From positions 7,670-71,669 of the forward strand of contig CAZBWQ010000003.1 of assembly GCA_964495565.1 (NCBI GenBank): a stretch of 64,000 bases of DNA, given 5' to 3'. The position numbers were made by a program, and so were the translations under genes. Below, piece after piece: positions 1 to 25,721 of this stretch. The first letter of the stretch is position 1. Each line of letters begins with the position of its first letter. The notes under the pieces were generated by a model that was not told where the DNA came from, ran no database searches, and was given only the letters and a program-made list of their open reading frames with translations. The DNA comes from an uncultured Sandaracinaceae bacterium. GTDB taxonomy: Bacteria > Myxococcota_A > Polyangia > Polyangiales > Houyiibacteriaceae.

Positions 1-473
1 AAATCGCGCTCCGTCGCCTTGCCCGCATCCAACATCGCTTGCGCTTGGAGGGCGGCGGCGCTGATCGAATCGAGACCGAGCGGCTGCACGTAATAGGGGT
101 CGTTCTGGATGTTCATCACGTCGGGGACCGGACCGAGCGAGCAACGACCGAACGCAAAGACGAGCGCCGTATCGATGTCGCCGTGCAAAAGACGGACCCA
201 CGCTTCGTAGAGCGCGAAGGCTCCGTCCATCTCCACGTGCGACTCACGGATCGGAGGCCAGGCCTTGAGCCCATCGACCGCCGCCACGAACGAAAAGGCG
301 CGTCCAAGCAGATAGTCGGTGCTGCCGGACACCGTGAACCCGATGTCGTCCTGCGTGAGCCCGACTTGGCTCATCGCCTGGGACGTGACCGGTTGCACGA
401 GCTCGGGCTCATCGGCGTGAATGACCGGGGCCGACGGCAACTGCGCGAAAGAGACGATGGCGATGTCCCGCAT
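1..473 (-). CDS. thiolase-fold (SCP-x/Ltp-type) protein, N-terminal part only; the gene runs off the left edge
   Basis: My own translation of the minus strand from ATG 473..471 gives MRDIAIVSFAQLPSAPVIHADEPELVQPVTSQAMSQVGLTQDDIGFTVSGSTDYLLGRAFSFVAAVDGLKAWPPIRESHVEMDGAFALYEAWVRLLHGDIDTALVFAFGR..., a thiolase-like N-domain layout. It has an ATGA stop/start overlap with the DUF35 gene. It is absent from the ORF track because it has no stop inside the window. Confidence 0.75.
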   Translation of the reverse strand, partial: MRDIAIVSFAQLPSAPVIHADEPELVQPVTSQAMSQVGLTQDDIGFTVSGSTDYLLGRAFSFVAAVDGLKAWPPIRESHVEMDGAFALYEAWVRLLHGDIDTALVFAFGRCSLGPVPDVMNIQNDPYYVQPLGLDSISAAALQAQAMLDAGKATERD

Positions 474-1381
474 CAGAGGTGCTCCTTGTACTTTTCGAAC
501 GGAACGTCCGGCTCGCCGGTGGGCTCGAAATACAGGATGTTCTCGAGCGACGGTTGCCACTGATCCTGCGGCTTCCACTTGGCTTGAACTCGCATGCCCA
601 TCCGTACCTCGTCGTACGGAATGCCGCTGATCAGGTGGTAGATCGGCATGTCGGCGCCGTCGAGCACGATCGCGCCAAAGCAATACGGAGGCTTGAGCTT
701 CTGACCCTCGAACGGGATTCGAATGATCGTGAACGTCGTGAGCACCCCGCGATCGGTGACCTCGACGTACTCGCTGGTCGGTTTGCCGGTCACCGGATCG
801 GCTGCCCGCGGTGGGACGTACACCTTGCCGGACTCCGGGTCCCGTCCGCCGATGATCTTGCCCTCTTGAAGGCCCTGGAGATACGCCGAGTAGTGCTGTC
901 CCGGGTTCACCTCGAACTGCAGGTGCACCGGTCCGGGCATGAATGCCGAGACGGGCTCGAAACAAGCGATGTCGCGAATCGTCCCGGTTTTGTGCTCTGC
1001 CCAGCGGAGCCGAACGCGCATGCCGGTCTTCATTTGCTTGGCATCGCCGGCGTCGACGGCATGCACCATGGCATTGTCGGCTCCGTCGATTTGGATCAGG
1101 GCCCACGCGAAAGGGCGGTCGAGAGGATGGGCGGTGCGAGGCGCCGTCACCCAGGACCACGATTTCACGGTGCCCGTCGGGCGCAGCTCGACGAATTCGC
1201 CGGTGGTCGCTTCCCCGTCCTCGTCGTACTCGAGCGGCGGGCAAAGGACGCGGCCGTCTGCCGTCTTCACGCCTTCGAGCACCTCGTACCGGAGGCTCTC
1301 CAAAAACCGGCCGACGATGGGGCCAGTGCTTCGAGTGTACGTGTATTCGAGCACGTACGGAGCCGAAAGAATCTCACTCAT
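473..1381 (-). CDS. tandem DUF35 (OB-fold, acyl-CoA-associated) protein
   Basis: 302-aa ORF with two repeated OB-fold halves (...FAWALIQIDGADNAMVHAVD...MKTGMRVRLRW... and ...CFGAIVLDGADMPIYHLISG...VRMGMRVQAKW...). It lies directly upstream of a thiolase-fold gene, the usual DUF35/thiolase pairing. Confidence 0.85.
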   Translation of the reverse strand: MSEILSAPYVLEYTYTRSTGPIVGRFLESLRYEVLEGVKTADGRVLCPPLEYDEDGEATTGEFVELRPTGTVKSWSWVTAPRTAHPLDRPFAWALIQIDGADNAMVHAVDAGDAKQMKTGMRVRLRWAEHKTGTIRDIACFEPVSAFMPGPVHLQFEVNPGQHYSAYLQGLQEGKIIGGRDPESGKVYVPPRAADPVTGKPTSEYVEVTDRGVLTTFTIIRIPFEGQKLKPPYCFGAIVLDGADMPIYHLISGIPYDEVRMGMRVQAKWKPQDQWQPSLENILYFEPTGEPDVPFEKYKEHL

Positions 1382-1402
1382 GGGTTCTCTCGCGATGCGT
1401 GG

Positions 1403-1738
1403 TCAGCCTTGAGGGAAGAACTTCTGCATCTTCTGGGCAAGCGCGATGTTGCCCTTGACCTTGAGCTTGCGGGTCAGAAAGGCCTTCCGGCCGTCGAGAT
1501 CGCCATTGGCCATCTCGATGAACTTCCCGGCGTCCATCATGATGTTGAGCGAGGGCTTTTCCACGGTGCCCTTCTCGACGCCTTTGAACTCGCCGTCTTC
1601 GATCGTGACGACCCACTCGCCGCCACCCTCGCCGCTCAGCGTATACTGGAGCTGGGCGCTCACGCCTTTGGCTTGGTCCGGCACGAATCGTTCCGCGAGC
1701 GTGTCGAAGTATTCTTGCGTGTTGGCTACCTTGGCCAT
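1403..1738 (-). CDS. SCP2 (sterol carrier protein 2) domain protein
   Basis: 111 aa; ...LQYTLSGEGGGEWVVTIEDGEFKGVEKG...MDAGKFIEMANGDLDGRKAFLTRKLKVKGNIALAQKMQKFF is the typical SCP2 C-terminal pattern. A GGAGG sequence sits upstream of ATG 1738. Confidence 0.85.
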   Translation of the reverse strand: MAKVANTQEYFDTLAERFVPDQAKGVSAQLQYTLSGEGGGEWVVTIEDGEFKGVEKGTVEKPSLNIMMDAGKFIEMANGDLDGRKAFLTRKLKVKGNIALAQKMQKFFPQG

Positions 1739-1775
1739 GTATTCACCTCCCCGTGTCTTTCCGGGTGTTCAGAAG

Positions 1776-1789
1776 TGAAACATGTTCTA
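1776..1789. promoter_or_regulatory. KstR-type operator-like palindrome TGAAACATGTTCTA (site A)
   Basis: Fits TnnAACnnGTTnnA. It lies 38 nt upstream of the SCP2 start in an AT-richer patch (cagAAGTGAAACATGTTCTAtttt). The AAGTGAAAC..GTT core is shared with sites B and C. Confidence 0.6.
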
Positions 1790-1842
1790 TTTTGCCCGAG
1801 CCCGCCCGTCAAGTCGGCTCGGACCGATCACGCTAGCCCGGG

Positions 1843-2247
1843 TCACCCCGAGGGCGTGAACGATCCCAACACCCGCAGCCCCGCCATGCACCCGTTGCCG
1901 GCGCGTCGCACCCAAACGACCAGGGCGCGTTTGTAGATTTGGCGACCGCTGTGAGTCGTGATTCGCAGATGACAGAGATCCCCGGTGTGAACCCAGCCAT
2001 CGAAGGAGAGCTGAATACCCCGTGCGCTCACGTCGATGGCCGACGCGGTTGCTTCGATGGGGCTGAGGATCTGGACCTCGACGTCCGAGGACCAACGCCG
2101 GTTGCGGCGGCGCTCGTCCGAAGACGCAGCCGGCCGAACCTGCGAGTGCTTGCGCACGGGAGGAGGTCGGGTCGAGCCTCGTTTCGGTTTGAAGGCCATC
2201 GCTAGCCTGCGCCGCGCGGTCGGCGTGCTCGCAGCGTAGGTTTTCAT
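1843..2247 (-). CDS. PilZ domain protein (c-di-GMP receptor type)
   Basis: RRRNRR ... DVSARG matches the RxxxR / DxSxxG PilZ signature. The N-terminal Arg/Lys-rich leader makes the start uncertain; an alternative Met lies 16 codons downstream. Confidence 0.65.
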   Translation of the reverse strand: MKTYAASTPTARRRLAMAFKPKRGSTRPPPVRKHSQVRPAASSDERRRNRRWSSDVEVQILSPIEATASAIDVSARGIQLSFDGWVHTGDLCHLRITTHSGRQIYKRALVVWVRRAGNGCMAGLRVLGSFTPSG

Positions 2248-2248
2248 G

Positions 2249-2291
2249 ATGCCCGTGTCGGGAGCGATTGTCGACTAAGTCGCACGGGCAT
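2249..2291. repeat. perfect 9-bp inverted repeat ATGCCCGTG ... CACGGGCAT with a 25-nt spacer; function unknown
   Basis: Read directly from the sequence. It lies between the thiolase stop (2364) and the PilZ start (2247), touching the PilZ start codon. Confidence 0.3.
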
Positions 2292-2363
2292 GTGCGGCAC
2301 GTCACACGTCACGAAACGTGGACGGGCAAACGGCGGTTCAGGGTCCCCGAAATGGGACTCGGC

Positions 2364-3518
2364 TCAGCTCAGCCGCTCGATGATGGTGACGTTCGCTTGA
2401 CCGCCACCTTCGCACATCGTCTGCAAACCGTACTTGCCACCGGTTCGCTCGAGCTCGTGCAAGAGCGTGGTCATGAGCTTGGCACCCGTCGCACCGAGGG
2501 GGTGACCTAGCGCGATCGCACCGCCGTTGACGTTGACCTTTTCGAGATCTGCATCGAGCTCCTTGGCCCATGCGAGAACCACGGGCGCGAAAGCCTCGTT
2601 GATCTCGACGAGGTCGATGTCGTTCAAGCTCATGCCCGCCTTCTTCAGCGCGTAGCGCGTAGCCGGAATCGGCGCCGACAACATGCGGATCGGGTCCTCA
2701 CCGCGAACGCTCATGTGATGGATTCGGGCTCGGGGCTTCAACCCGTGCTCTTTGAGAGCCTTCTCCGACACGACGAGCATGGCCGCAGAGCCGTCCGAGA
2801 TCTGACTCGCGACCGCGGCAGTGAGGCGGCCGCCATCCATCAGAACGGGGAGCGCGGCCATCTTTTCGAGGGTGGTGTCGGCACGCGGACCCTCGTCGGC
2901 CTTCACGTCGCCGAAGGGAACGATCTCACGATCGAAACGCCCCTCCTTCTGCGCACGCAGAGCCCGCTGATGGCTTTCCAGCGCGAACTTCTCGAGCTCC
3001 TCGCGCGAGAGGTCCCACTGCTTGGCGATCAGCTCGGCCCCGTAGAACTGGTTGACGGGTTTGTCGCCGTAGCGTTCCGTCCAGCCCACCGACCCCGAGA
3101 ACGGATCGGGAATGCCGAATGCTTGGCCGGCCAGCATCGAAGCGCCGATCGGAATCATGCTCATGTTCTGCACGCCGCCTGCCACGACCACGTCTTGGGT
3201 GCCGCTCATGACGGCCTGGGCAGCAAAATGGACCGCTTGTTGAGAAGAACCGCACTGACGGTCGATCGTCACGCCGGGCACGTGCTCCGGATAGCCGGCG
3301 GCCAACCAGCACGTCCGGGCGATGTCACCGGCCTGCGTGGCGACGGAGTCGACACAACCAAAGATGACGTCGTCCACGACGGCCGGGTCGATGCCAGCGC
3401 GCTCGATCAAGCCCTTGATGGCATGCGCGCCGAGATCGGCAGAATGAACTTTGCTCAGACCGCCCTTCTTCCTTCCGACGGGCGAACGAGCTGCTTCGAC
3501 GATGTACGCTTCCGGCAT
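2364..3518 (-). CDS. acetyl-CoA C-acyltransferase (thiolase), FadA-type
   Basis: 384 aa; MPEAYIVEAARSPVGRKKGGL..., ...DRQCGSSQQA... (nucleophilic Cys) and C-terminal ...NVNGGAIALGHPLGATGAKL...MCEGGGQANV. Confidence 0.92.
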   Translation of the reverse strand: MPEAYIVEAARSPVGRKKGGLSKVHSADLGAHAIKGLIERAGIDPAVVDDVIFGCVDSVATQAGDIARTCWLAAGYPEHVPGVTIDRQCGSSQQAVHFAAQAVMSGTQDVVVAGGVQNMSMIPIGASMLAGQAFGIPDPFSGSVGWTERYGDKPVNQFYGAELIAKQWDLSREELEKFALESHQRALRAQKEGRFDREIVPFGDVKADEGPRADTTLEKMAALPVLMDGGRLTAAVASQISDGSAAMLVVSEKALKEHGLKPRARIHHMSVRGEDPIRMLSAPIPATRYALKKAGMSLNDIDLVEINEAFAPVVLAWAKELDADLEKVNVNGGAIALGHPLGATGAKLMTTLLHELERTGGKYGLQTMCEGGGQANVTIIERLS

Positions 3519-3587
3519 GTGAACCTCTCTGTGCTTGCTGTTTTGTAAGGGTTGTCGTCGTCCGCCGCAAGGACTCGCCTTGCGTGA

Positions 3588-4601
3588 TCAAAGAACGTGT
3601 TGGTCGATGCGCCCCCGATGGTGAGGCTCGTCGCCATGGGCTGCGGCGAGCGCCCAGGCACGTTTCATCCACATATGCAGGTCGTATTCGATGGTGTAGC
3701 CGATGGCGCCATGGACCTGCAGAGCCTGCTTGGCCACGAATTGTGCAGCCTGCCCTGCATAGATCTTGGCCAGAGACACGGCGATAGACGCGTCGGCGCT
3801 CGAGCTCGCGAGGCTCCAGGCGGCCCGATACACGAGAGGCCGAGCGAATTCCTGCTGGATGAGCGCATCGGCGAGGCGGTGCTTGACCGCCTGCTGCGCG
3901 CCGATGGGCTTTCCGAACTGCTCGCGGTCCTTCGCGTACTGCACCGCCATGTCGAGCATCCTACGGCAGAGCCCGACGAGGAGCGCCGAGGCACCGAGCG
4001 CTGCGCGGTCGTGGCTCATCGACAGCAACGCGTCGACGTCGACGTCGCGTCGCATGCGGTAGCGTTCTTCGTGCCGAAAGGAAACACGGCCCAGATTCCG
4101 GGCGCGGTCCACCGACTGTTCCGCGACGACCTCGGCCTCGGCGAGCGGTACGCAAAAGAGCTCGCCATCGCGTTCGGCGATCAAGACGTCCGCCGAGCCG
4201 ACGTGCGGGGCGATCGGCGGCGCTCCGAGCGACACCGTCATCTGCGCGGTTCCCGCCAGGGCCCGGCCGAGCCAACGTTCCCGTTGTTCGTCGGTACCGG
4301 CGAGCTCGAGCAAAGGGATCCCCACGGCAAGCGTTTCCACGATGGGAACGGGACAAGCCGCGTAACCGACCTCCTCCACGGGGAGCACCCAGTCGAGCTC
4401 CGTCATGGCCATGCCGCCTGCCTCTTCGCTCGCGGTCATGCCGACCAATCCGGTTTGTGCCAGCGTTTCCCAGACGGCGTGGGCTCCGTCGAGCCGCCCC
4501 TCCCACGCCGCGCGGACGACATCGGGCGGACACTCCCGCTGCAACACGTCTCGAACGGTGTCGCGAAGCATCTTTTGGTCGTCCGTGAACGTGAAACGCA
4601 T
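3588..4601 (-). CDS. acyl-CoA dehydrogenase family protein, short subunit of a probable two-gene ACAD
   Basis: 337 aa with an ACAD C-terminal pattern (...REQFGKPIGAQQAVKHRLAD...IYAGQAA...QVHGAIGYTIEYDLHMW...). It lies 4 nt downstream of a longer ACAD gene. Confidence 0.85.
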   Translation of the reverse strand: MRFTFTDDQKMLRDTVRDVLQRECPPDVVRAAWEGRLDGAHAVWETLAQTGLVGMTASEEAGGMAMTELDWVLPVEEVGYAACPVPIVETLAVGIPLLELAGTDEQRERWLGRALAGTAQMTVSLGAPPIAPHVGSADVLIAERDGELFCVPLAEAEVVAEQSVDRARNLGRVSFRHEERYRMRRDVDVDALLSMSHDRAALGASALLVGLCRRMLDMAVQYAKDREQFGKPIGAQQAVKHRLADALIQQEFARPLVYRAAWSLASSSADASIAVSLAKIYAGQAAQFVAKQALQVHGAIGYTIEYDLHMWMKRAWALAAAHGDEPHHRGRIDQHVL

Positions 4602-4604
4602 GAC

Positions 4605-5765
4605 CTATTTCCGCGGCAATCCGAGAACACGCTCGGCGATGATGTTTCGCTGGATCTCGTTGGTACCTGCGTAGATCGGCCCCGCTAGCGCGAACTGAAA
4701 ACCCTTCATCCACTGCCCGTCATCGATCGCGCTCGGTGCGCCCTCGTCGAGCTCTTGCAACGCACCGAGAATGGCCAGCGCGGTTTCGTGCGTCCGCACG
4801 TCCATCTCGGACCAAAAGACCTTGTTCATGCTGGAGTCGGCGCCGATCGGATGACCTTCCATCATGCGACTGACGGTCTGGAAGGTGAACCACCGATACG
4901 CCTGGGCGTCCATCCAAGCCCGCACGACCTGATCGCGCAGCGCGGGATCGGCCTGCGCTCGGCGACTTCGATACAAGTCGATCAAGCGCGCGGCCGTCGC
5001 CATGAAACGCCCCGGGCTTCGCAGGCTCAGGCCACGTTCGGAGCTCGTGGTGGCCATGGCGACTTTCCAACCCTGGTGCACTTCGCCGATGACGTCTCGA
5101 TCGGGAACGAACACCTCTTCCAAGAAGATCTCGGCAAAGCCTTCGTCTCCATCGAGACGATCCACGCCGCGCACGGTCACACCCTGCGCGCGAAGCGGGA
5201 ACATGAAATACGTCAGCCCGCGGTGCCGCGTCTGCTCGGGATCGGTGCGGAACAAGCCGTACGCCATGTCGCAGAATGCAGCACGGGTGGACCAGGTCTT
5301 CTGGCCACTCAGCAACCAACCCCCTTCGGTGCGACGCGCCGTGCTCTTGAGCGCGGCGAGATCACTACCGGCATTGGGCTCGGACCACGCCTGCGCCCAG
5401 GTGACGTCTCCGCGCGCCATGGGACGCAAGATTCGCTCTTTCTGATCCTCGGTGCCGAACTCGAAGAGCGTGGGCGCCAGCAAGAAGATGCCGTTTTGGG
5501 TGACCCGGTTGGGCGCGCCAGCGCGGTAGTACTCTTCTTCGAAGATCAACCATTCGACGAGCGAAGCCTCCCGACCTCCGTATGGCTTGGGCCAGGACAC
5601 GGCCGCCCACCCCGCATCGAAGAGATCCCGCTCCCACTCGAGGTGCTGCGCAAACCCCTCCCGGGTATCGCCAGACGAAAAGGGCTCGCGAGGCACGTGG
5701 GCTTCGAGCCACGATCGGCACTCCTGCCGAAATGCCTTCTCCGATTCGGTGAAGTCGAGATCCAT
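4605..5765 (-). CDS. acyl-CoA dehydrogenase
   Basis: Start trimmed to MDLDFTESEKAFRQECRSWL (ATG 5765). ...WAQAWSEPNAGSDLAALKSTA... and ...YAGTNEIQRNIIAERVLGLPR are ACAD hallmarks. The upstream in-frame extension in the ORF track is Arg/Gly-rich noise overlapping the neighbouring gene. Confidence 0.9.
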   Translation of the reverse strand: MDLDFTESEKAFRQECRSWLEAHVPREPFSSGDTREGFAQHLEWERDLFDAGWAAVSWPKPYGGREASLVEWLIFEEEYYRAGAPNRVTQNGIFLLAPTLFEFGTEDQKERILRPMARGDVTWAQAWSEPNAGSDLAALKSTARRTEGGWLLSGQKTWSTRAAFCDMAYGLFRTDPEQTRHRGLTYFMFPLRAQGVTVRGVDRLDGDEGFAEIFLEEVFVPDRDVIGEVHQGWKVAMATTSSERGLSLRSPGRFMATAARLIDLYRSRRAQADPALRDQVVRAWMDAQAYRWFTFQTVSRMMEGHPIGADSSMNKVFWSEMDVRTHETALAILGALQELDEGAPSAIDDGQWMKGFQFALAGPIYAGTNEIQRNIIAERVLGLPRK

Positions 5766-5773
5766 GCGCCCTC

Positions 5774-7075
5774 TCACGCACACAAGCGCCCGAGGGTGTC
5801 TCGAGCTTCCGTCATGATCCGCTCGAGGAGCTCCAACACCGTCGGGATCTCGTCGATCACACCCGTCACCTGACCGGTGGGCAGGATGCCCGCCTCGATT
5901 TTGCCATCGACCATCGATGCCTTCGTCAACATCGGCGCGTTGGCCGCCATCGCGAGCTGGGACCAAGTGAGCTCTTGGTTCTTCTTCATGGCCAGCCCCT
6001 CCTCGAGAAGCTCTGGAAGGGAAGTGCCGGTGACCCGCATCAGCGACAGGGCATTGAGCGCCGCCCGTGGAAATCGGGTCAGGAGGCTCGCTTTCTCGAG
6101 CTGCTCGATGAGCGGTGTGCGGATGACGCGCTGAGGATATCCATCGACCGCCTTGGTGACGACCGTCCCGTTGGCCTTGGTTTCGAGATAGATCTGCTTC
6201 ACCTGGTCGGGGACCTGGCTTTCCTTCGTGAGCAGGAAACGCGTTCCCATGGCGATTCCCTCGGCGCCGAGCGCGAGCGCAGCCACCAGCCCGCGGCCGT
6301 CGCGGAAACCACCGGCAGCCACGACGGGAATGTCGACGGCGGACGCGACGTCCGGGATCAGAATGGAGGTCGGTATCTGCCCGGTGTGTCCGCCACCCTC
6401 CTGCCCCTGCGCGATCACCGCGTCGACACCCCAACCCTGGACCTTCTCGGCGTGCCGGCGCGCTCCGATGGTAGGCATGGTCAGGACACCCGCATCTTTG
6501 AGAGTCTTGACCACGCGCTCGCCCGGCGCCTGGGCAAAGCTCGCAACCCGGACTTTCTGCTCAATCAAGAGGTCGACCCGCTTCATGATGTCGCTCTGAT
6601 CGGCGCGCATGTTGACCCCGAAAGGCTTGTCGGTTCGATCCTTGACCTTCGCGATGGCCTCGCGCAGCTCCCGAAAAGTCATCGTCGCAGCGGCCAAGAT
6701 GCCGAGGCCGCCCGCCTCGCTCGTCGCGGAAGTCAAGCTCGCCCCCGACACCCAGCCCATTCCGGTCTGCACGATCGGATACTCGATCCCGAAGAGCTCA
6801 CAAATGCGCGTGCGCAGCGCGTGCGAGGGCTTGGTCTCGGCGCCCCCGGTTGCTTTTGTGGTTGCCTCCACGCGCGATACGACCGACCGCTTGGACGGCT
6901 TCTTCTTGCGTGCTTTGGGCTTGGCCTCGGCCTCGGGCGCTTTCTTCGGCGCGCGCGTCCGACGCTCCGCCTTCTTCGACGGCGATTTCTTGGTGGCCTT
7001 CTTCTTCGTGGCCTTCTTCGTGGGCGCGGCTTTTCTTTTGGATGCGGCCTTCTTGGTTCGCTTCTCGGCGCTCAT
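5774..7075 (-). CDS. nitronate monooxygenase / enoyl-reductase family flavoprotein (IpdC-like by position) with a Lys/Ala-rich N-terminal tail of about 86 aa
   Basis: The NMO core runs from ...LRTRICELFGIEYPIVQTGMGWVSG... to ...AQGQEGGGHTG...VVAAGGFRDGRG.... There is an ATGA overlap with the upstream CoA-transferase B stop. An alternative GTG start at VEATTK would remove the tail. Confidence 0.85.
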   Translation of the reverse strand: MSAEKRTKKAASKRKAAPTKKATKKKATKKSPSKKAERRTRAPKKAPEAEAKPKARKKKPSKRSVVSRVEATTKATGGAETKPSHALRTRICELFGIEYPIVQTGMGWVSGASLTSATSEAGGLGILAAATMTFRELREAIAKVKDRTDKPFGVNMRADQSDIMKRVDLLIEQKVRVASFAQAPGERVVKTLKDAGVLTMPTIGARRHAEKVQGWGVDAVIAQGQEGGGHTGQIPTSILIPDVASAVDIPVVAAGGFRDGRGLVAALALGAEGIAMGTRFLLTKESQVPDQVKQIYLETKANGTVVTKAVDGYPQRVIRTPLIEQLEKASLLTRFPRAALNALSLMRVTGTSLPELLEEGLAMKKNQELTWSQLAMAANAPMLTKASMVDGKIEAGILPTGQVTGVIDEIPTVLELLERIMTEARDTLGRLCA

Positions 7076-7836
7076 GCTGCGACTTCCTTTTGCGCGTAGC
7101 CCTTGGGGTCGAGCTCACGGAGGAGCTTCAAGGCATCTGGGGTCGGCGTGGGCGTCGTGTCCAGCTTTTCGGGAATGACCAGCTCGAATCCCGTATTGTC
7201 GACGACGTCCTGCAGACCGACACCCGGATGCAGGGAAACGAGCCGCATCCGACGGTCGGGAGTGTCGAAGTCGAACACCCCGAGATTGGTGATCACCCGC
7301 CGAATCTCGTGAAAGCGGCTGACGTCCGGACCGAGCTCGCGGGCGCGGTCGTATCCCACCCCGCTCACCATGTCGACCTCGGCCACGAAGGTCTTCGGGG
7401 TGTGATTGGGCACCCAATAGCTGGTGACGTGATTGATCGTGTTGCCGGGGGCGCCGCGCACACCGAGCAGCTGGGCTTTGGGCCGCGTCCAATCGCCGAT
7501 GCACGCGATGTTCTGGTTTCCGTATCGATCGATTTGGGAGGCACCCATCATGACGTGTCTGCGGCCCCACCAAAGGGTCTCGAAGACGGTCCCGAACGGC
7601 ATCCACCCTTCGATGTCGCTCTCGGCGGGCTTGGCGCCGAGCGGCAACGCCCGTCGCAGGAGCAGGTTGAAGCCATCGGTCATCAAGATCTCGGGCGCGA
7701 AGCTGGCCTTGGCCAGACGGGCCCCCAAGCTGGGCGTCGTGCCCATGGCGCTCACCAGGATTTCGCCGTCGCCCCGAAAGCATTCGGCGATGGCGAGCGC
7801 ACATATGTCGGCCCGGGTCGCTTCGACCGCGGTCAT
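7072..7836 (-). CDS. CoA-transferase family I, subunit B (IpdB-like by position)
   Basis: Start trimmed to MTAVEATRADICALAIAECF (ATG 7836, ATGA overlap with the subunit A stop). ...GASQIDRYGNQNI...LLGVRGAPGNT... is the glutaconate/3-oxoacid CoA-transferase B pattern. Confidence 0.9.
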   Translation of the reverse strand: MTAVEATRADICALAIAECFRGDGEILVSAMGTTPSLGARLAKASFAPEILMTDGFNLLLRRALPLGAKPAESDIEGWMPFGTVFETLWWGRRHVMMGASQIDRYGNQNIACIGDWTRPKAQLLGVRGAPGNTINHVTSYWVPNHTPKTFVAEVDMVSGVGYDRARELGPDVSRFHEIRRVITNLGVFDFDTPDRRMRLVSLHPGVGLQDVVDNTGFELVIPEKLDTTPTPTPDALKLLRELDPKGYAQKEVAA

Positions 7837-8678
7837 TTCGCCACCGCCTTTTGATAGTCCGCCTCGCTGAGCTCGAGATAGTCCGCCCGAAAGGATTCCC
7901 ACGCCGCTCCGTCTTTGGCGCTCTCCGCGTACAGGCGTTGGAACGCCTCGTCGCGGCCGTAGTCGGGCGGACACTCGGTGAAGTGCGCACCATGGGGCGC
8001 TTCCACCACTCCCTGAACCATCATGCGATTGATCTGCAAGCTCTGGAGAGGTCCGCCCTGGACCAGCTCCTCGGTTGGAACGACTCTCTCGCAGCTCATG
8101 AATGCCTTCTTTGCCGCCATGCAGAAGAGGTGGTCGAAGTACGGATCGCGTCCGAGCGACTGACCATTGCCGCTCGAATCGGCGCGATTCATGTGGACGA
8201 AGGCCACGTCTACGTGAAGCGCCGGCACGGCCACGAGCTCTTCCCCGTCGTCGTAGGGGGAACGGACGGTTTTGAGGTGCGGGTTGATCTTCATCACGTC
8301 CGAGCCGAGACCCGCCCGGGTCGGCAAGAACGGAAGGCGTTGGGCCGCGGCCCGAAGCCCGAGCAGGAACATGCCCTCGTCGAGCTCGATGGCTTCCACC
8401 GAGCCCTCCTGCCGGGCCTTTCGAAAGTGCGGCTCGAGTGGGATCGAGTCCAACGACACGAATCCGTATACGGCCTTCTTCAGCTGGCCGGTCGCGCAAA
8501 GGATGCCGACGTCGGGGCCGCCATACGAAACGACCGTCAGATCCTTGACCCCTTTGCGCACGAGCGCGCGAACGAATGCCATGGGCTTGCGACGAGACCC
8601 CCACCCGCCGAAGCCGATGGTCATCCCGTCGGTGACTTCCGCGACCGCTTCATCGACGGTCATGCGCTTGTCGTTCAC
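7833..8678 (-). CDS. CoA-transferase family I, subunit A (IpdA-like by position)
   Basis: 281 aa; MNDKRMTVDEAVAEVTDGMTIGFGGWGSRRKPMAFVRALVRKGVKDLTVV... is the typical subunit A N-terminus. Confidence 0.9.
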   Translation of the reverse strand: MNDKRMTVDEAVAEVTDGMTIGFGGWGSRRKPMAFVRALVRKGVKDLTVVSYGGPDVGILCATGQLKKAVYGFVSLDSIPLEPHFRKARQEGSVEAIELDEGMFLLGLRAAAQRLPFLPTRAGLGSDVMKINPHLKTVRSPYDDGEELVAVPALHVDVAFVHMNRADSSGNGQSLGRDPYFDHLFCMAAKKAFMSCERVVPTEELVQGGPLQSLQINRMMVQGVVEAPHGAHFTECPPDYGRDEAFQRLYAESAKDGAAWESFRADYLELSEADYQKAVAK

Positions 8679-8687
8679 GAAGCTACC

Positions 8688-9446
8688 TCACTCCTCTGTG
8701 TCGGGGTCGCGCTTTTCGACGAACGCATCGCGCGCCTCGTCTGCCACACCCGCGAGATTCAACTCGAACGTGAAACCCTGCTCGAACCGATAGGAGCGGT
8801 TGACGTCGACCGGATCGATGTTGTTCAGGCACTGTTTGGCGACTCGCACCACCCGCGGGATCTTCTTGGTGAAGGTGCGAGCGACCTTCCTCGCTTCGTC
8901 GACGAGCTGATCCGGATCGACCACCGCGTACACGGAGCCCCAGGCGTGAAGCTCTTCGGCCGACGCCGGCTCGCAGGTGAGAACCATCGCGCGCATCTTG
9001 AGTGGCGGGACCAAGCGGGCCAGGTGCGTGGCCGCGCCAAGCGCGCCCCGATCGACCTCGGGAAGCGCGAATTTGGCCCCCCTGGCGGCGATCAGGATGT
9101 CGGAGTTTCCAGCCAGACCGATGCCACCGCCCACGCAGTAGCCGTGCACCGCCGTGATCACGGGCACCGGGCACTCGTACACGGCCTTGAAGGCTTCCCA
9201 GCAGCCTCGATTGGCGCCGAGCAACGCATCGAAGCCCTCGGTGGTTTGCATTTCCTTGATGTCGACGCCGGCGTTGAACCCGCGGCCCTCGGCGCGAAGG
9301 ATCACCGCGCGCGTGTCTGGATCCCGGCCTGCCCCGGTCACGAGGTCCGCGAGCTCGAACCAGCCTTGGACCGGAATCGCGTTGACCGGAGGGTAGTCGA
9401 CCGTGATTTCGGCTATTCCATCAATGATTTCAACTGAAATGCCCAC
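8688..9446 (-). CDS. enoyl-CoA hydratase/isomerase (crotonase) family (EchA20-like by position)
   Basis: 252 aa; ...VILRAEGRGFNAGVDIKEM...AVHGYCVGGGIGLAGNSD.... GTG start at 9446 with AAGGA 8 nt upstream. Confidence 0.9.
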   Translation of the reverse strand: MGISVEIIDGIAEITVDYPPVNAIPVQGWFELADLVTGAGRDPDTRAVILRAEGRGFNAGVDIKEMQTTEGFDALLGANRGCWEAFKAVYECPVPVITAVHGYCVGGGIGLAGNSDILIAARGAKFALPEVDRGALGAATHLARLVPPLKMRAMVLTCEPASAEELHAWGSVYAVVDPDQLVDEARKVARTFTKKIPRVVRVAKQCLNNIDPVDVNRSYRFEQGFTFELNLAGVADEARDAFVEKRDPDTEE

Positions 9447-9474: not shown

Positions 9475-9488
9475 TGAAACGCGTTTCA
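9475..9488. promoter_or_regulatory. KstR-type operator-like perfect palindrome TGAAACGCGTTTCA (site B)
   Basis: It lies 29 nt upstream of the enoyl-CoA hydratase start codon, in the 51-nt gap after the preceding gene. The flanks gAAGTGAAACGCGTTTCAGT closely match site C. Confidence 0.65.
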
Positions 9489-9497
9489 GTGCTCCGG

Positions 9498-10028
9498 TCA
9501 AGTCGACGCGGAAGGCGCCGCCGCCCGGAGACCCTCGAGGAACGCTTCGATCGACGGCGTGATCGGTCGACCCATGCGCGTCAGCTCGGCGCGCACGGAC
9601 TCGATCGCGCTGCCGACGTCCGACGTGGTGATCGTCCGAAGCGGCGGAACGCGAAACCGGTAGACCACCCGAAGGACGGCGCGAAAGATCGCCTCGGGCA
9701 TCACGACGACGACCGCCACGTCATCCCGATCGAGCTCGTGGCGGCGCGCCTCCAGCCATTCGGAGAACTTTCTTCGAACCGAGCTCGAGATCACCCCCGT
9801 CCCGCGATGGTGCTGGACCAGCCCGAGAAAGGGCCGGCTCTGGGTGAGGTGAGAGTCCGCGAGAGCGAGCATCCGGTCGACCTCGCCTTCCTGCACCAAG
9901 CGGGGCAGCTTCATGTCGAAGAACACGAGCGGCGAAAGCGTCGCATCGATTCGGATTCGTTCAGATTCGTAGGTGGGCTCCGGGTCCCATCGGTGTCGTG
10001 TATGCATAAGCCATCCAAAGGTGAGCAA
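9498..10028 (-). CDS. hypothetical protein, paralog of 12522..12935
   Basis: 176-aa ORF with no recognisable catalytic motif. It shares blocks with the 12522 ORF (RRKFSEWLEARRHEL / QRKAITEWIDRDRQHL; PPLRTITTSDVGSAIESV / PIPVKVFRDVSAAESW). The start could also be the second Met (MHTRH). Confidence 0.6.
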   Translation of the reverse strand: MLTFGWLMHTRHRWDPEPTYESERIRIDATLSPLVFFDMKLPRLVQEGEVDRMLALADSHLTQSRPFLGLVQHHRGTGVISSSVRRKFSEWLEARRHELDRDDVAVVVVMPEAIFRAVLRVVYRFRVPPLRTITTSDVGSAIESVRAELTRMGRPITPSIEAFLEGLRAAAPSAST

Positions 10029-12483: not shown

Positions 12484-12521
12484 GGCTGCGTCGGCCTGAG
12501 TAGACTGCGCAACGGGGAAGC

Positions 12522-14644: not shown

Positions 14645-14649
14645 GTCAC

Positions 14650-19819: not shown

Positions 19820-19884
19820 ATGTGGGTCGTAGGTGGTTGAAACGACGAGGGTTTTCGAGGGCGAGCGTGTCCCCTTGCAGAAAG

Positions 19885-19898: not shown

Positions 19899-20937
19899 GT
19901 CTTGCCGCGTATCCGTGGCGGCAAGCAACCGAAAGATCCTGCTGAAGAGGCGTCCGGTCGGCATGCCGTCACGCGAGGACTTCGCCGTCGGTGAGGGACC
20001 GATCGGGAACCCCGGGCCAGGCGAAGTGCTGCTCCGAAATCTCTATCTGTCGATCGATCCGGCCATTCGCGGTTGGATGAGCGACGCGAAGTCGTATCTG
20101 CCGCCCATCGAGCTCGGCGACTCGATTCGCAGCGGGACTTTGTCCGAGGTCGTCGAATCGAACGCCGAGGGTTGGGAGCCGGGCGACCTCGTGCGGGCGC
20201 TCGCCGCGTGGGAATCGTACAGCGTCGTGCCGGTCCGCAACCTGCACGGCAAGGTACGCCCGATCGAAGGGGTGCCCCTTTCCTCGATGTTGAGCGTGCT
20301 CGGCGGCACCGGGCTGACCGCGTACTTCGGGCTGCTGCACGTGGGGCGCCCTCGAGCAGGCGAAACGGTCTTGGTCTCTGCAGCTGCCGGGGGGGTTGGC
20401 TCGATCGTCGGCCAGCTCGCGAAGATTCGAGGATGTCGAGCCGTGGGGCTGACGGGAACCGACGACAAGTGCAACTGGATCGTCGACGAGCTCGGCTACG
20501 ACGTGGCCATCAACTACAAGACGGCCGACCTCAAGGCCGCGCTCGGCGAGGCCTGTCCCGATGGCGTCGACGTCTTCTTCGACAGTGTGGGCGGGGAGAT
20601 TTTGAACACGGTGCTGACACGGATTCGTTACCACGGACGCGTCGTCATTTGCGGGGCGATGTCCCAGATCAATGCGCGGGAGCTGCCCCCCGGCCCGAGC
20701 AACTATCTTCAGCTTCTGGCCAAGAGCGCGCGGATGGAAGGCTTCACGACGTTGGACTTCGCGACTCGCTACGACGATGCCCGCCAAGAGCTGGCAAAGT
20801 GGATCGCAGAGGGCAAGATCGTTCACCGTGACGACGTCGTCGAGGGGCTGGAGCGTGCACCGGCGCATTTGCTCCGACTATTCACCGGCGATCATCGCGG
20901 CAAACTGATGGTCGAAATCGCCGAAGCAGAGGTGTGA
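19891..20937 (+). CDS. NADP-dependent oxidoreductase, MDR superfamily (CurA/YncB / alkenal-enone reductase type)
   Basis: ...SNRKILLKRRPVGMPSREDFAV...GEVLLRNLYLSIDPAIRGWMSD...VLVSAAAGGVGSIVGQLAKIRG.... The start is uncertain (ATG 19891 inside the palindrome, or GTG 19915). Confidence 0.85.
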   Translation: MFQSCRVSVAASNRKILLKRRPVGMPSREDFAVGEGPIGNPGPGEVLLRNLYLSIDPAIRGWMSDAKSYLPPIELGDSIRSGTLSEVVESNAEGWEPGDLVRALAAWESYSVVPVRNLHGKVRPIEGVPLSSMLSVLGGTGLTAYFGLLHVGRPRAGETVLVSAAAGGVGSIVGQLAKIRGCRAVGLTGTDDKCNWIVDELGYDVAINYKTADLKAALGEACPDGVDVFFDSVGGEILNTVLTRIRYHGRVVICGAMSQINARELPPGPSNYLQLLAKSARMEGFTTLDFATRYDDARQELAKWIAEGKIVHRDDVVEGLERAPAHLLRLFTGDHRGKLMVEIAEAEV

Positions 20938-21842
20938 CGATGGCAGGAATTTGTGAAGGACGGGTCGTGATCGTGACGGGCGCAGGCCGTGGCATCGGCC
21001 GGGAGCATGCCCTCGAGTTCGCGAGGCAGGGCGCCAAAGTGGTGGTCAACGATCTCGGCGTCAGCAACAGCGGCGAAGGGCCCGACGAAGGACCGGCACA
21101 CGAGGTGGTTCGCGCGATCCGCGAGATGGGTGGAGAAGCGGTCGCAAACGGGGCCGACGTTGCGGACTGGGCGCAATCCGAAGCCCTGGTCCGACAAGCG
21201 ATCGACGAGTTCGGTCGACTCGACGTCGTCGTCAACAACGCGGGGTTCGTTCGAGATCGTATGTTCGTGAGCTGCAGCGAGGACGAGTGGGACGCCGTGA
21301 TCCGGGTGCACCTCAAAGGGCACTTTTGCGTCACGCGGCACGCGGCGGCGTACTGGAGGCAGCGTGTGAAATCCGGTGAGGAGGTCGACGCACGCATCAT
21401 CAACACGAGCTCCGGAGCCGGTGTCCTCGGAAGCGTCGGACAGGCCAGTTACTCGGCGGCCAAGGCGGGGATCGCGACGTTGACGCTCGTTCAGGCCGCA
21501 GAGCTCGGTCGCTACGGCATCACCGCGAACGCCATCTGTCCCATCGCGCGCACCCGCATGACGGAGGTCTTCGGCGATGCGATGAAAGCTCCCGAGCAAG
21601 GCTTCGACCGCAACGATCCTGCCAACGTCTCTCCGTTCGTGGTCTGGCTCGGCAGCGCCCAATCCCGTGGCGTCACCGGCCGGGTCTGGGAGGTGTTCGG
21701 GGGCACGATCACCGTGTTCGACGGGTACCGGCGCGAGCAGACCGTCGACATCGGCAAGCGGTGGGATCCGGCCGCCATCGGGTCGGCCGTCGAAGAGGTT
21801 CTTTCGAAAGCGCGCCCGCCCGTCGAGGTCTACGGCTCATGA
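20934..21842 (+). CDS. SDR, MFE-2 / 17beta-HSD4 (Hsd4A-like) 3-hydroxyacyl-CoA dehydrogenase type
   Basis: ...VVIVTGAGRGIGREHA...VVVNDLG...VVVNNAGFVRDRMF...EDEWDAVIRVHLKGHF...SYSAAKAG.... GTGA overlap with the preceding stop; an alternative ATG lies at 20940. Confidence 0.85.
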   Translation: MTMAGICEGRVVIVTGAGRGIGREHALEFARQGAKVVVNDLGVSNSGEGPDEGPAHEVVRAIREMGGEAVANGADVADWAQSEALVRQAIDEFGRLDVVVNNAGFVRDRMFVSCSEDEWDAVIRVHLKGHFCVTRHAAAYWRQRVKSGEEVDARIINTSSGAGVLGSVGQASYSAAKAGIATLTLVQAAELGRYGITANAICPIARTRMTEVFGDAMKAPEQGFDRNDPANVSPFVVWLGSAQSRGVTGRVWEVFGGTITVFDGYRREQTVDIGKRWDPAAIGSAVEEVLSKARPPVEVYGS

Positions 21843-22621
21843 GGCAACCTTTCGACTTTTCGAAGACCACCGTGCTGGTGACGGGCGGAAGCCGCGGGAT
21901 CGGCCGAGGCATCGCCGAGGCCTTTTTGGCGATGGGAGCCGAAGTCGTCATCTGCGGCCGGAGCGAGCCCGAGCGTCTGCCCACGGCAAGCGACAACAGC
22001 GCGAGCTTCATCCAGGCCGACGTGCGAGACGCGAACCAAGTCGAGGCGCTGTTCGAGCAGATCCGGAGCCGCCTCGGCCGACTCGACGTCCTGATCAACA
22101 ACGCGGGCGGGGCGCCTCCTGCGGACGCGGCGACGGCGTCGCCTCGATTCTCGGAGAAGGTCATCCAGCTGAATCTCATCGCCGCTCTGCACTGCGCGCA
22201 ACAAGCCAATCGACTCATGCAGGCGCAACGCTCGGGTGGCTCCATCATCAACATCGCGAGCGTGTCGGGGGTGCGTCCGTCGCCCGGAACCGCTGCGTAC
22301 GGCGCCGCCAAGGCCGGTCTCATCAATCTGACGGGAAGCCTGGCCATCGAGTGGGCGCCCAAAGTGCGTGTCAATGCGATCTCGGCGGGTCTCATCGAGA
22401 CCGAGCAAGCGCATCTTCACTACGGCGACCAGGCTGGCGTGGCTCGTGTCGCCGAAACCGTACCCCTCAGGCGCCTGGGCACCTCGGAGGACATCGCCGG
22501 AGCATGCTTGTATCTCGCTTCCCCACTCGCGTCCTACGTGAGCGGCGCCAACCTGCTCTTGCACGGCGGAGGTGAGACGCCCGCCTTCCTCGCCGCCGCA
22601 ACGGCCAACCGTGAGGAGTGA
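21839..22621 (+). CDS. SDR family oxidoreductase
   Basis: Start trimmed to MRQPFDFSKTTVLVTGGSRGIGRGIA (ATGA overlap). NNAG and AAYGAAKAG motifs are present. Confidence 0.85.
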   Translation: MRQPFDFSKTTVLVTGGSRGIGRGIAEAFLAMGAEVVICGRSEPERLPTASDNSASFIQADVRDANQVEALFEQIRSRLGRLDVLINNAGGAPPADAATASPRFSEKVIQLNLIAALHCAQQANRLMQAQRSGGSIINIASVSGVRPSPGTAAYGAAKAGLINLTGSLAIEWAPKVRVNAISAGLIETEQAHLHYGDQAGVARVAETVPLRRLGTSEDIAGACLYLASPLASYVSGANLLLHGGGETPAFLAAATANREE

Positions 22622-22627
22622 GAGCCC

Positions 22628-23767
22628 ATGGACTTTGCGTTTTCGGAGGAACAAAACGAGCTGAGGAGAGTCGCGAGGCGCTTTCTCGAGGTGGCATCCG
22701 CCGAGGACCGGGTCCGCTCGGCGATGGCGACGGAGCGGGGCTACGATCCCTCGGTCTGGGAGCAGCTTTCGAAGGAGCTGGCCTGGACGGCCCTGACCAT
22801 TCCAGAGGAGCATGGGGGGCTCGGCATGAGCTACCTCGACCTCCATCCACTCATGGAGGAAATGGGGCGCGCGTTGCTGTGCTCCCCGTTCTTTTCGACG
22901 ATCTGCCTCGGAGCCAACGCGTTGCTGGTGGGCGGAACCGAAGCCCAAAAGGCCCACTACCTTCCAGCCGTCGCGGCAGGCGACGTGAAGCTGACCCTGG
23001 CTTACGCAGAGCAGGTCCATCCCGACGAGCCCGAAGGGATCGAGACGACGTACCGCCGGGACGGCGTCGACTACGTGCTCACCGGAGCAAAGAGCTACGT
23101 GCTCGACGGCCACACGGCAGACGCGATCATCGTCGTCGCCAGGGCGCCGGGCAGCCGTGGCGCCGACGGCGTGAGCCTGTTCTTGGTGCCCGGGGAGACG
23201 AGGGGCTTGAAGCGCGTCTGGCTGCCGACCATGGATCAAACGCGGCGGTTGGCCGCGTTGCAACTCGACGACGTCGTCGTTCCACGCGATGCGCTGGTGG
23301 GCCTCGAAGGAAGCGGATGGACCTCGTGCGAAAAAACGCTCGATCTCGCGAGAATCGCCCTCGCTGCGGAGCAGGTGGGCGGCGCCGAGAAGACACTCGA
23401 CATGTCGGTCGAGTACGCGAAAGTGCGCCAGCAGTTCGGCCGGCCGATCGGGTCGTTTCAGGCGATCAAACACAAGTGTGCCGACATGCTGACGATGGTC
23501 GAGTCCGCACGGTCCGCGGCGTTCTATGCGAGCGCGCTGGCTTCGCAGGGCGAGCAGGATCTCGCCGAAGCGGCATCAGGCGCGAAATCGTATTGCTCCG
23601 ACACCTTCTTTCACTGCGCTGCGGAGAACATCCAGATCCACGGTGGGATCGGGTTTACCTGGGAGCATCCCGCCCATCTGTATTTCAAGCGAGCGAAATC
23701 CTCGGAGGCTCTTTTCGGGGATCCTCCTTTTCACCGCGAGCGCGTCGCGCGATGCATGGGGTTGTGA
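22628..23767 (+). CDS. acyl-CoA dehydrogenase (first of an adjacent pair)
   Basis: 379 aa; MDFAFSEEQNELRRVARRFLE..., ...REQFGRPIGSFQAIKHKCADM..., ...QIHGGIGFTWEHPAHLYFKRA. Confidence 0.9.
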   Translation: MDFAFSEEQNELRRVARRFLEVASAEDRVRSAMATERGYDPSVWEQLSKELAWTALTIPEEHGGLGMSYLDLHPLMEEMGRALLCSPFFSTICLGANALLVGGTEAQKAHYLPAVAAGDVKLTLAYAEQVHPDEPEGIETTYRRDGVDYVLTGAKSYVLDGHTADAIIVVARAPGSRGADGVSLFLVPGETRGLKRVWLPTMDQTRRLAALQLDDVVVPRDALVGLEGSGWTSCEKTLDLARIALAAEQVGGAEKTLDMSVEYAKVRQQFGRPIGSFQAIKHKCADMLTMVESARSAAFYASALASQGEQDLAEAASGAKSYCSDTFFHCAAENIQIHGGIGFTWEHPAHLYFKRAKSSEALFGDPPFHRERVARCMGL

Positions 23768-24942
23768 TGGAGCTACAGCTGACCGAAGAGGAAGAAGCGT
23801 TCCGACAGGAAGTGAGGTCCTGGCTCGCCGAGCAGCTCGGTGGGCCTTACCGCCATCTCCGCGGGCGTGGCGCGTCGGGTGACCAGGAGTCCTACGTCGA
23901 AGAACGCATCGAGTGGGGCAAAGTCATGGGAGCGGCAGGCTGGAACTGCATCGGGTGGCCCGAGGAATACGGTGGCCGCGGCTGCACCATCAAAGAGGAA
24001 GCGATCTTCAACGAGGAGTACGTGCGCGCCAACGGCCCCGGTCGAGTCGGCCACATCGGAGAGACTTTGCTCGGGCCCACGCTGATTCACTTCGGGACGG
24101 ACGAGCAGCGACGGCGTTTTCTCCCACCGATCGTGTCGGGCGACGAGATCTGGTGTCAGGGCTACTCGGAGCCGGGCGCCGGATCCGACCTCGCCAACGT
24201 GCAGACCAAAGCGACCCTCGTGGGGAACGAATGGATCATCGAAGGACAGAAGATCTGGACCTCCGGGGCGCTGCACTCGGACTGGTGCTTCGTCCTGTGC
24301 CGAACGGACCCTTCGGCACCCAAACATCGGGGTATCAGCTACATCCTGGTGCCGATGCACCAAGACGGCATCGAGATTCGGCCGATCAAGCAAATGAGCG
24401 GAGGAGCCGAGTTCGCCGAAGTGTTCTTCGATGGCGCGAAGGCACGACAGGATCACGTGGTGGGAGGAGTCAACGAGGGCTGGAAGGTCGCGATGGGAAC
24501 GCTGGCGTTCGAGCGCGGCGCATCGACCTTGGGTCAGCAGTACCTCTTCCAACAAGAGCTCGAGCAAGTGCTCGAGACTGCCAAGCGGACAGGCGCCGCC
24601 AAGGATCCCGTCTTCCGCCAACGCCTCGCGGCTGCCCAGATCGGCTTGAGGATCATGCGAGTCAATGCGCTGCGCACGTTGGAGCACCAGGGCGCAGACC
24701 TGAGCCGTGAAGCGCTGATCAGCAAGCTCTATTGGTCGAACTGGCACCGCGATCTCGGTAAGCTCGCCATGGACGTGCTCGGCCTAGACGCGGAGCTCAT
24801 CGAGGGGACGCCTTACGAGCTGACCTCGATGCAGAAGTGGTACCTATTCGCGAGAGCCGATACGATTTACGCAGGCTCGAACCAGATTCAAAGAAACATC
24901 ATCGGCGAGCGAGGGCTCGGCCTCCCGAAGGAGCCTCGATGA
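23767..24942 (+). CDS. acyl-CoA dehydrogenase (second of the pair), paralog of 4605..5765
   Basis: Start trimmed to MELQLTEEEEAFRQEVRSWLAEQL (TGATG junction). ...WCQGYSEPGAGSDLANVQTKA..., ...YAGSNQIQRNIIGERGLGLPK. Confidence 0.9.
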   Translation: MELQLTEEEEAFRQEVRSWLAEQLGGPYRHLRGRGASGDQESYVEERIEWGKVMGAAGWNCIGWPEEYGGRGCTIKEEAIFNEEYVRANGPGRVGHIGETLLGPTLIHFGTDEQRRRFLPPIVSGDEIWCQGYSEPGAGSDLANVQTKATLVGNEWIIEGQKIWTSGALHSDWCFVLCRTDPSAPKHRGISYILVPMHQDGIEIRPIKQMSGGAEFAEVFFDGAKARQDHVVGGVNEGWKVAMGTLAFERGASTLGQQYLFQQELEQVLETAKRTGAAKDPVFRQRLAAAQIGLRIMRVNALRTLEHQGADLSREALISKLYWSNWHRDLGKLAMDVLGLDAELIEGTPYELTSMQKWYLFARADTIYAGSNQIQRNIIGERGLGLPKEPR

Positions 24943-25721
24943 GCAAGCAACCCAGATACGTGAGCGGACACGGTCTGCTCGAGGGCAAAATGGTTCTCGT
25001 CACTGCGTCGGCGGGAACGGGAATCGGATTCGCGACCGCCATGCGGTGTGCCGAAGAGGGGGCCGCCGGGCTCGTCATCAGCGACATCCACGAACGAAGG
25101 CTCACGGAGGCAGCAGACGAAATCGAGAGCAAAACCGGGATGCGGCCTGCCGTCGTCTTGTGCGACGTGACCAACGAGCAACAGGTGCAGACCATGTTCG
25201 AAACGGCGATCGACGCGATGGGGCACGTCGACGTCTTGATGAACAATGCCGGCCTCGGCGGATATGCCAAGGTCGTCGACATGACCGACGATCAATGGGG
25301 CAAGGTGCTCGACGTGACGCTCAACGGCTGCTTTCGATGCACGCGGGCCGCGCTTCGACACATGATGCCGCGAGGCCAGGGGACGATCGTGAACAATGCT
25401 TCGGTGCTCGGATGGAGAGCGCAGGAAGGGCAGGCACATTACGCGGCCGCCAAGGCGGGCGTGATGGCACTCACCCGGTGCGCTGCGATCGAAGCGGCAG
25501 AGGCGGGCGTACGGATCAACTGCGTCGCGCCCTCCCTCGCGATGCACCCGTTTCTCGAAAAAGTCACCCCGCCCGGGCTCCTCGAGGAGCTCCAAAAACG
25601 GGAGGCGTTCGGCCGGGGCGCCGAGCCCTGGGAGGTGTCGAACGTCATGGTGTTCTTGGCGAGCGACTACAGCTCCTACATGACCGGCGAGGTGGTCTCC
25701 GTCTCGAACCAGCACGCCTGA
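24939..25721 (+). CDS. SDR family oxidoreductase
   Basis: Start trimmed to MSKQPRYVSGHGLLEGKMVLVTASAGTGIGFAT (ATGA overlap). NNAG and HYAAAKAG motifs are present. Confidence 0.85.
   Translation: MSKQPRYVSGHGLLEGKMVLVTASAGTGIGFATAMRCAEEGAAGLVISDIHERRLTEAADEIESKTGMRPAVVLCDVTNEQQVQTMFETAIDAMGHVDVLMNNAGLGGYAKVVDMTDDQWGKVLDVTLNGCFRCTRAALRHMMPRGQGTIVNNASVLGWRAQEGQAHYAAAKAGVMALTRCAAIEAAEAGVRINCVAPSLAMHPFLEKVTPPGLLEELQKREAFGRGAEPWEVSNVMVFLASDYSSYMTGEVVSVSNQHA

Follow-up and report, generated by a model that had tools for sequence, protein, structure and literature searches.

Do the short palindromes scattered through a gene cluster of an uncultured Polyangiales bacterium act as operators of a KstR-type repressor and, if so, which genes would they govern and where is the repressor encoded? 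The question arises from a stretch of 64,000 nt (hereafter, the window) in which the initial annotation had picked out three 14-mers fitting the operator pattern of KstR (Rv3574), a regulator described from actinobacteria (PMC8700777) with the core operator TnnAACnnGTTnnA, for which dimer binding and self-repression have been shown (Kendall et al. 2007, PMC1995591). An exact search of the window with TNNAACNNGTTNNA returned the same three positions and no others, at 1776-1789 (TGAAACATGTTCTA, site A), 9475-9488 (TGAAACGCGTTTCA, site B), and 19885-19898 (TGAAACATGTTTCA, site C), with no strand assigned to any of the operators; in the orientation of the minus-strand operon behind it, site A reads TAGAACATGTTTCA. 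Could three such matches have arisen by chance? The pattern has only eight fixed positions and a scan allowing one mismatch found seven further matches against 7.3 expected in total, both of which speak for a chance origin; against it, dinucleotide-preserving shuffles of the window gave a mean of 0.20 matches, with none of 100 shuffles reaching three and a largest count of two, in line with the annotation's rough estimate of well under one match per 64 kb. As the one-mismatch matches show no excess, there appear to be three sites only, with no halo of weaker ones, and searches of the window for weaker sites with one or two mismatches yielded nothing above chance.

The sites also resemble each other in their surroundings, though less than had been proposed. 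The trinucleotide AAG lies directly 5' of all three on the plus strand, so the claim of shared flanks holds on that side; the GTTTCAGT end is common to sites B and C only, and site A ends in GTTCTATT. All three fall in short non-coding gaps (51-171 nt) ahead of operons with steroid or lipid catabolic genes, as the annotation had described: site A is 37 nt ahead of the start codon of an SCP2 gene (1738) in a 104-nt gap after a PilZ gene, site B is 28 nt ahead of the start of an enoyl-CoA hydratase gene (9446) in a 51-nt gap, and site C is 16 nt ahead of a likely GTG start (19915) in a 171-nt gap. An ATG within the site C palindrome was considered as the start codon and rejected, its frame running into a stop in the orthologs from two relatives (L055 and L056).

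The genes behind the sites were mapped from codon-position GC statistics and family scans (Pfam and NCBIfam), and the first ~28 kb of the window constitute a steroid-catabolic cluster. The operon behind site A, on the minus strand, opens with a sterol-carrier-like SCP2 gene (1403..1738; Pfam SCP2, E 2.7e-17), continues with a 302-aa DUF35/ChsH2-C OB-fold gene (473..1381; Pfam OB_ChsH2_C, E 2e-26, and synteny in relatives), which we take to match Rv3521 in size and position, and runs off the window in the 5' part of an Ltp4-like thiolase-fold gene (1..472). Past the window edge the operon can be followed on contig L001, which is 100% identical to window positions 1-2622 and carries the same genes onward to the first 81 codons of a Rieske gene, adding an Ltp3-like gene, an acyl-CoA synthetase, and the start of a Rieske/KshA_C gene. 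In the relative L006, the Ltp4-like and Ltp3-like orthologs exceed the NCBIfam cut-offs for PRK07937 (514 bits) and PRK08313 (635 bits), respectively, and the acyl-CoA synthetase of this operon in relatives falls in PRK07798. The PilZ-domain gene (1843-2247, minus strand; cyclic-di-GMP receptor type) that separates site A from the ring C/D operon occupies the same place in most relatives; in a catabolic cluster such a gene is unexpected. Three mutually independent short-read contigs (L002, L004, and L005) encode the exact SCP2 protein of the window and all start 9 nt before site A (equivalent to window position ~1798), a shared assembly break that suggests strain variation or a repeated k-mer upstream of the site.

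Site B precedes a ring C/D-type operon (2364..9446, minus strand; Pfam and NCBIfam) composed of an EchA20-type hydratase (8688-9446; NCBIfam PRK07938, 388 bits, cut-off 260), the two subunits of an IpdAB-like CoA-transferase (7833-8678 and 7072-7830; Pfam), an IpdC-like reductase of the NMO family (5774-7075; Pfam), two acyl-CoA dehydrogenases of the FadE type (4605-5771 and 3588-4601; Pfam), and a FadA6-type thiolase (2364-3518; NCBIfam PRK07801, 708 bits, cut-off 591). A weak NCBIfam match to IpdE2 also occurs in this operon, and its gene order is identical in six relatives (L006, L009, and L055-L058). The operon behind site C (19915..25721, plus strand; Pfam and ORFs), which retains its order in L055-L058, begins with an NADP-dependent oxidoreductase (19915-20937, with the likely GTG start), followed by two SDRs (20934-21842 and ~21839-22621), two acyl-CoA dehydrogenases (22628-23767 and ~23767-24942), and a last SDR ending at 25721, these five all assigned by Pfam and ORFs. 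The three genes ahead of site C differ between relatives. The initial annotation had called the sites' targets acyl-CoA catabolic operons; their catabolic nature stands, and with steroid marker families in the cluster (the FadD3-family ligase, the EchA20-type and FadA6-type enzymes, and the Ltp3/Ltp4-like proteins) the description can be narrowed to genes for steroid side-chain and ring C/D degradation.

One segment of the cluster has no KstR-type site. It extends on the plus strand from 10125 to 15870 and comprises a FadD3-family ligase (10125-11726; NCBIfam FadD3 family, 765 bits, cut-off 657), an SDR, a small DUF7793-like protein (12522-12935), a CasG-like steroid-acid CoA ligase (12878-14644; 684 bits, below the NCBIfam cut-off of 750), and a thiolase (14641-15870). 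The gap upstream of FadD3 (10029-10124) shows little conservation among relatives, and neither a KstR or KstR2 motif nor any other conserved element was found in it. In one relative, L058, the corresponding gap (~9775-9815) holds three tandem copies of TAGAACGTCAA/T, an array of direct repeats of a KstR-type half-site that is absent from the window and from the other relatives. A gene for a protein of 160-176 aa (window 9498-10028, minus strand), without a Pfam match, always separates FadD3, which is divergent, from site B/EchA20 and is conserved, as is the DUF7793-like protein, in every syntenic locus; in the window, where this ORF has 176 aa, its stop codon and the -35-like hexamer at site B overlap. 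The space from the FadD3 operon to site C contains another ORF without a family match (15884 to ~16850, minus strand), whose product has an N-terminus resembling a signal peptide and a C-terminal sequence resembling a beta-barrel; L055-L058 lack this ORF here.

The remainder of the window (28-64 kb) is outside the steroid cluster and encodes, among others, F420 biosynthesis, MetH, menaquinone synthesis, HMG-CoA reductase, and IlvD. The F420-related genes (26728-34944) directly adjoin the cluster and include luciferase-like oxidoreductases (26728-27843 and 34069-34944), an F420-type NADP oxidoreductase (27854-28510), CofD (29319-30254), and an FbiC-like radical-SAM/CofH protein (31656-33833). 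Since this cofactor is typical of actinobacteria, its genes beside the cluster may bear on the origin of the cluster. Further along, HMG-CoA reductase, polyprenyl synthase, and MarR-like genes stand in a row (50291-53207, minus strand), a mevalonate/isoprenoid locus in an organism that apparently degrades sterols.

Conservation of the sites was assessed in two sets of relatives, drawn from a lineage in which the closest species-representative genome is ~77-80% identical in DNA to the window. For the first set, one genome per species was scanned for a KstR-like protein, which gave 43 loci (691 kb), all from the same myxobacterial MAG lineages (one carries the label Coxiellaceae, and two are given simply as 'uncultured bacterium'). 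In these loci there are 64 occurrences of the motif, where the window's shuffle rate would predict ~2, and they fall at two orthologous places only. The first is the ortholog of site A (aaaaTAGAACAYGTTTCActtc), which 31 of the 43 loci have, amid flanks that vary, at ~6150 nt upstream of the gene for the KstR-like protein; most of the loci in which it is missing do not extend that far upstream. The second is a fourth site, site D (ggcTAGAACAYGTTCTA), located 2.5-7 kb downstream of the regulator gene between an amidohydrolase gene and an operon with an HsaA-like oxygenase (404 bits, cut-off 450), an HsaE-type hydratase, and an acetaldehyde dehydrogenase and 4-hydroxy-2-oxovalerate aldolase of the HsaG/F type, that is, the lower ring A/B pathway.

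The second set consisted of four further genomes (L055-L058), each with a 21.6-kb locus, retrieved through FadD3 orthologs 75-83% identical to that of the window. Three of them (L055-L057) have the motif only at the orthologs of sites A, B, and C, and L058 has it at B and C only, owing to a different order of genes on the site A side. In L006, L009, and L055-L058 a near-identical site B stands ahead of the hydratase ortholog, site C is kept ahead of the orthologous oxidoreductase gene in L055-L058, and across ~0.8 Mb of the relatives' loci there are no extra occurrences of the motif. Conservation ahead of orthologous operons, which the initial annotation had proposed as a check, is thus seen for all three sites. 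The DNA flanking the sites in relatives is only about 75-80% identical, and the persistence of three intergenic matches at orthologous positions in such a background rules out a chance origin, leaving coincidence vanishingly improbable. Homologues of SCP2, FadD3, and the regulator were recovered only from MAGs labelled as uncultured Myxococcales, Polyangiales, or 'delta proteobacterium', which places the source of the window among the Polyangiales myxobacteria and outside the mycobacteria and other actinobacteria.

Conservation extends to the promoters in which the sites are embedded. Upstream of site A, in gene orientation, a -35-like hexamer (TTGACG, 1807..1812, minus strand) stands at a distance of 17 nt, and CTTGACG is invariant at exactly this distance in 32 unique sequences, the sequence between being variable; at site D, CTGGACA is likewise invariant exactly 17 nt upstream in 33 sequences. 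With the spacing of site A, the TAGAAC half-site would tentatively fall at the -10 position. Site B has a hexamer 7 nt upstream (TTGACC, 9496..9501, minus strand), with ggtcaagcc at a fixed distance from the site in all five genomes compared, and site C has one 4 nt upstream (TTGCAG, 19875..19880, plus strand), with TTGCA at the same distance in five of five genomes. At these two sites the operator tentatively takes up the spacer and extends as far as the -10/start region, and with just 16 nt between site C and the start codon, the leader of its transcript is suggested to be very short or absent. The -35-like elements rest on this conservation; the -10 assignments and the geometry of occlusion are tentative.

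Such an arrangement might also be expected if the palindromes were core-promoter or transcript-leader elements that function without any repressor, read by an alternative sigma factor or acting as RNA structure. Each site overlaps the presumed -10/start region, a strict sigma-70 scan called no promoter at site A, B, or C, and the CACTTC part of the site A flank is conserved along with the palindrome, all of which would fit. However, the same dyad-symmetric 14-mer stands at three different distances from the -35-like hexamer, unlike an element recognized by polymerase, its sequence equals that of an experimentally proven TetR operator, and a regulator of the cognate type is encoded in the cluster. 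A repressor-free role for the palindromes is on these grounds highly improbable.

Where, then, is the regulator? The absence of a TetR-family gene from the window, stated in the initial annotation, was upheld by Pfam, which assigned the family to none of ~50 ORFs, and by tblastn of KstR-like proteins against the window, which gave nothing better than E 0.3; the 176-aa ORF beside site B and the MarR-like ORF at 52629-53207 were checked individually as TetR candidates and neither is one. In relatives, the site A operon reads SCP2, DUF35, Ltp4-like, Ltp3-like, acyl-CoA synthetase, Rieske/KshA_C, and, as its last gene, a 192-aa TetR-family protein (TetR_N and TetR_C_20). In every syntenic locus that extends far enough, this gene directly follows the Rieske gene, after 2-13 nt and in the same direction, with an RlmL-type methyltransferase gene next; it has no motif of its own, the closest operator being that of site A at 6.1 kb upstream. 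No second TetR gene was found in any of the relatives' loci examined. The regulator gene of the strain itself was not recovered, the closest contigs (L059-L064) belonging to other species at 78-81% DNA identity, and by synteny it is predicted ~4.4-4.9 kb to the left of window position 1. The annotation's proposal that the regulator acts in trans from elsewhere is accordingly to be replaced, the gene being probably the last of the site A operon. With that position, the regulator is probably subject to negative autoregulation through site A.

Among solved structures, the protein encoded in relatives is closest to M. tuberculosis KstR (PDB 5cw8/3mnl/5aqc; E 6e-22 over residues 3-190), ahead of the next best match at E 1.6e-12, and KstR2 structures match it weakly (E 8e-4). 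Aligned with KstR it has 31% identity and 51% positives (E 2e-29), with the helix-turn-helix region well conserved, and JGI's automatic annotation already gives some of the relatives' proteins the name 'cholesterol catabolism regulator'. In NCBIfam the KstR equivalog NF033703 leads all other families by a wide margin, with the FadR model second, but its 118-125 bits fall short of the cut-off (280), and for this reason the protein is referred to here as a KstR-like homologue and not as KstR. Judged from its sequence, the regulator would therefore be a distant KstR homologue and not an ortholog in the strict sense, and with 31% identity and a sub-cut-off score, the same DNA specificity as KstR is not guaranteed. 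Three orthologs with an overall identity of 76-78% do not differ at all in residues 1-58, in keeping with the invariance of the operator. Together with the fit to the published core and the sites kept in orthologous promoters, the homologue encoded in the relatives' clusters bears out the attribution of the sites to the KstR type, and the view that the three palindromes are real, conserved operators of that type is supported at the level of sequence.

A different TetR-type protein could nevertheless read these sites, namely a fatty-acid-responsive regulator (PsrA-like or FadR-like) encoded elsewhere, with the KstR-like protein reading something else. PsrA is such a regulator in Pseudomonas, where it represses beta-oxidation genes and responds to an acyl ligand, and its consensus is (G/C)AAAC-N2-4-GTTT(G/C), which sites B and C fit as GAAAC-N2-GTTTC. 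The FadR model ranks second for the KstR-like protein in NCBIfam (41 bits), and many of the target genes are of a generic beta-oxidation type. By contrast, the site A orthologs and all copies of site D have half-sites of the form TAGAAC, which is canonical for KstR and at odds with the PsrA consensus; moreover, motif and KstR-like gene go together in 43 genomes, the loci examined contain no further TetR gene, and steroid-specific families (FadD3 and HsaA-like) are among the targets. Control by a fatty-acid regulator from elsewhere in the genome is, on this balance, improbable.

The palindromes are most probably operators of a KstR-like TetR repressor in the steroid-catabolic cluster of this uncultured Polyangiales bacterium. 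As proposed, a repressor dimer would bind each 14-bp palindrome, and with the palindromes placed inside or against the core promoter (17, 7, and 4 nt past the -35-like hexamer, with 16-37 nt left to the start codon) the bound dimer would block RNA polymerase, an operator that overlaps the polymerase footprint being the usual geometry of TetR-type repression. Encoded by the last gene of the site A operon, the repressor would limit its own synthesis. By analogy with mycobacterial KstR, release may be brought about by a steroid CoA-thioester from early in the pathway, which would switch on the genes for the side-chain, for ring C/D and, outside the window, the HsaA/E/G/F-like genes for rings A/B. 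The FadD3 operon, with no site, is a point against this model.

The mechanism itself is already known; the novelty lies in the host lineage and the wiring. Two large surveys of bacteria that degrade steroids make no mention of Myxococcota or Deltaproteobacteria, and a literature search of incomplete coverage, which conveys absence of evidence only, turned up neither KstR nor 9,10-seco steroid catabolism in Myxococcota. The occurrence of the operator, a homologous repressor, and apparently corresponding operons (that of Rv3521-ltp4-ltp3 among them) in dozens of uncultured Polyangiales genomes extends the range of the system to another phylum, and the combination of operator and regulator offers a compact marker of steroid-catabolic regulons in metagenomes. 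It is possible, at a little short of even chances in our judgment, that a whole KstR-type unit moved between Actinobacteria and Polyangiales and that a single repressor serves the side-chain and the A/B and C/D rings without KstR2. If this is true, a widespread uncultured lineage of sediment and soil, in a phylum that produces sterols, would comprise unrecognised aerobic steroid degraders.

Among known systems, the closest is that of KstR in Mycobacterium, Rhodococcus, and Nocardia, where it governs cholesterol catabolism. The window sites share its 14-bp core, and in both systems the sites are in promoter gaps of steroid or lipid catabolic operons. The proven M. tuberculosis sites include ACTGAAACGTGTTCTAGTTT and AATGAAACGTGTTCTAGCCT, with TGAAAC half-sites, and TAGAAC occurs among them as well; a further site, GTTAGAACCTGTTCTACTCG, lies in the gap between Rv3520c and Rv3521, and hsaC and hsaD are listed in the regulon (PMC1995591). 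The latter gap is upstream of Rv3521-ltp4-ltp3; judging by sizes (302/351/382 aa), gene order, and the M. tuberculosis genes, this operon is presumably the counterpart of the site A operon, so that a site would stand ahead of an operon of this type in both systems. The hsaA and hsaEFG genes also belong to the mycobacterial regulon. Both regulators are of the TetR family, with KstR the closest solved structure to the one in relatives, and negative autoregulation has been shown there and is probable here. The two differ in host phylum, Actinobacteria against Myxococcota, and in the place of the regulator gene: mycobacterial kstR is divergent from fadE34 with an operator in its own promoter, whereas the relatives' regulator is at the 3' end of a target operon.

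With PsrA, the likeness is limited to the GAAAC-N2-GTTTC of sites B and C, the site A orthologs and site D having TAGAAC instead; no PsrA-like gene was seen in the loci examined, and the co-located regulator resembles KstR. KstR2 has the motif AnCAAGnnCTTGnT, which was found in no promoter gap of the window or the relatives, where the loci examined also contain no second TetR gene. The sole match to the KstR2-type pattern in the window, ATCAAGCCCTTGAT at 3406-3419, lies inside the coding sequence of the FadA6-type thiolase and is matched in one relative only, also within a gene; as a KstR2 operator it was judged to be a chance occurrence. The genes behind site B (EchA20, IpdAB, IpdC, FadE, and FadA6 types), together with FadD3, presumably correspond to the gene set under KstR2 in actinobacteria. 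There, KstR2 (Rv3557c) controls the lower, C/D-ring pathway and is released by HIP-CoA (PMC8700777, PMC4810484). The wiring thus departs from the actinobacterial scheme: the ring C/D genes, a separate KstR2 regulon in actinobacteria, here form an operon with a KstR-type operator, which suggests a simpler arrangement in which one repressor covers the ring C/D genes too.
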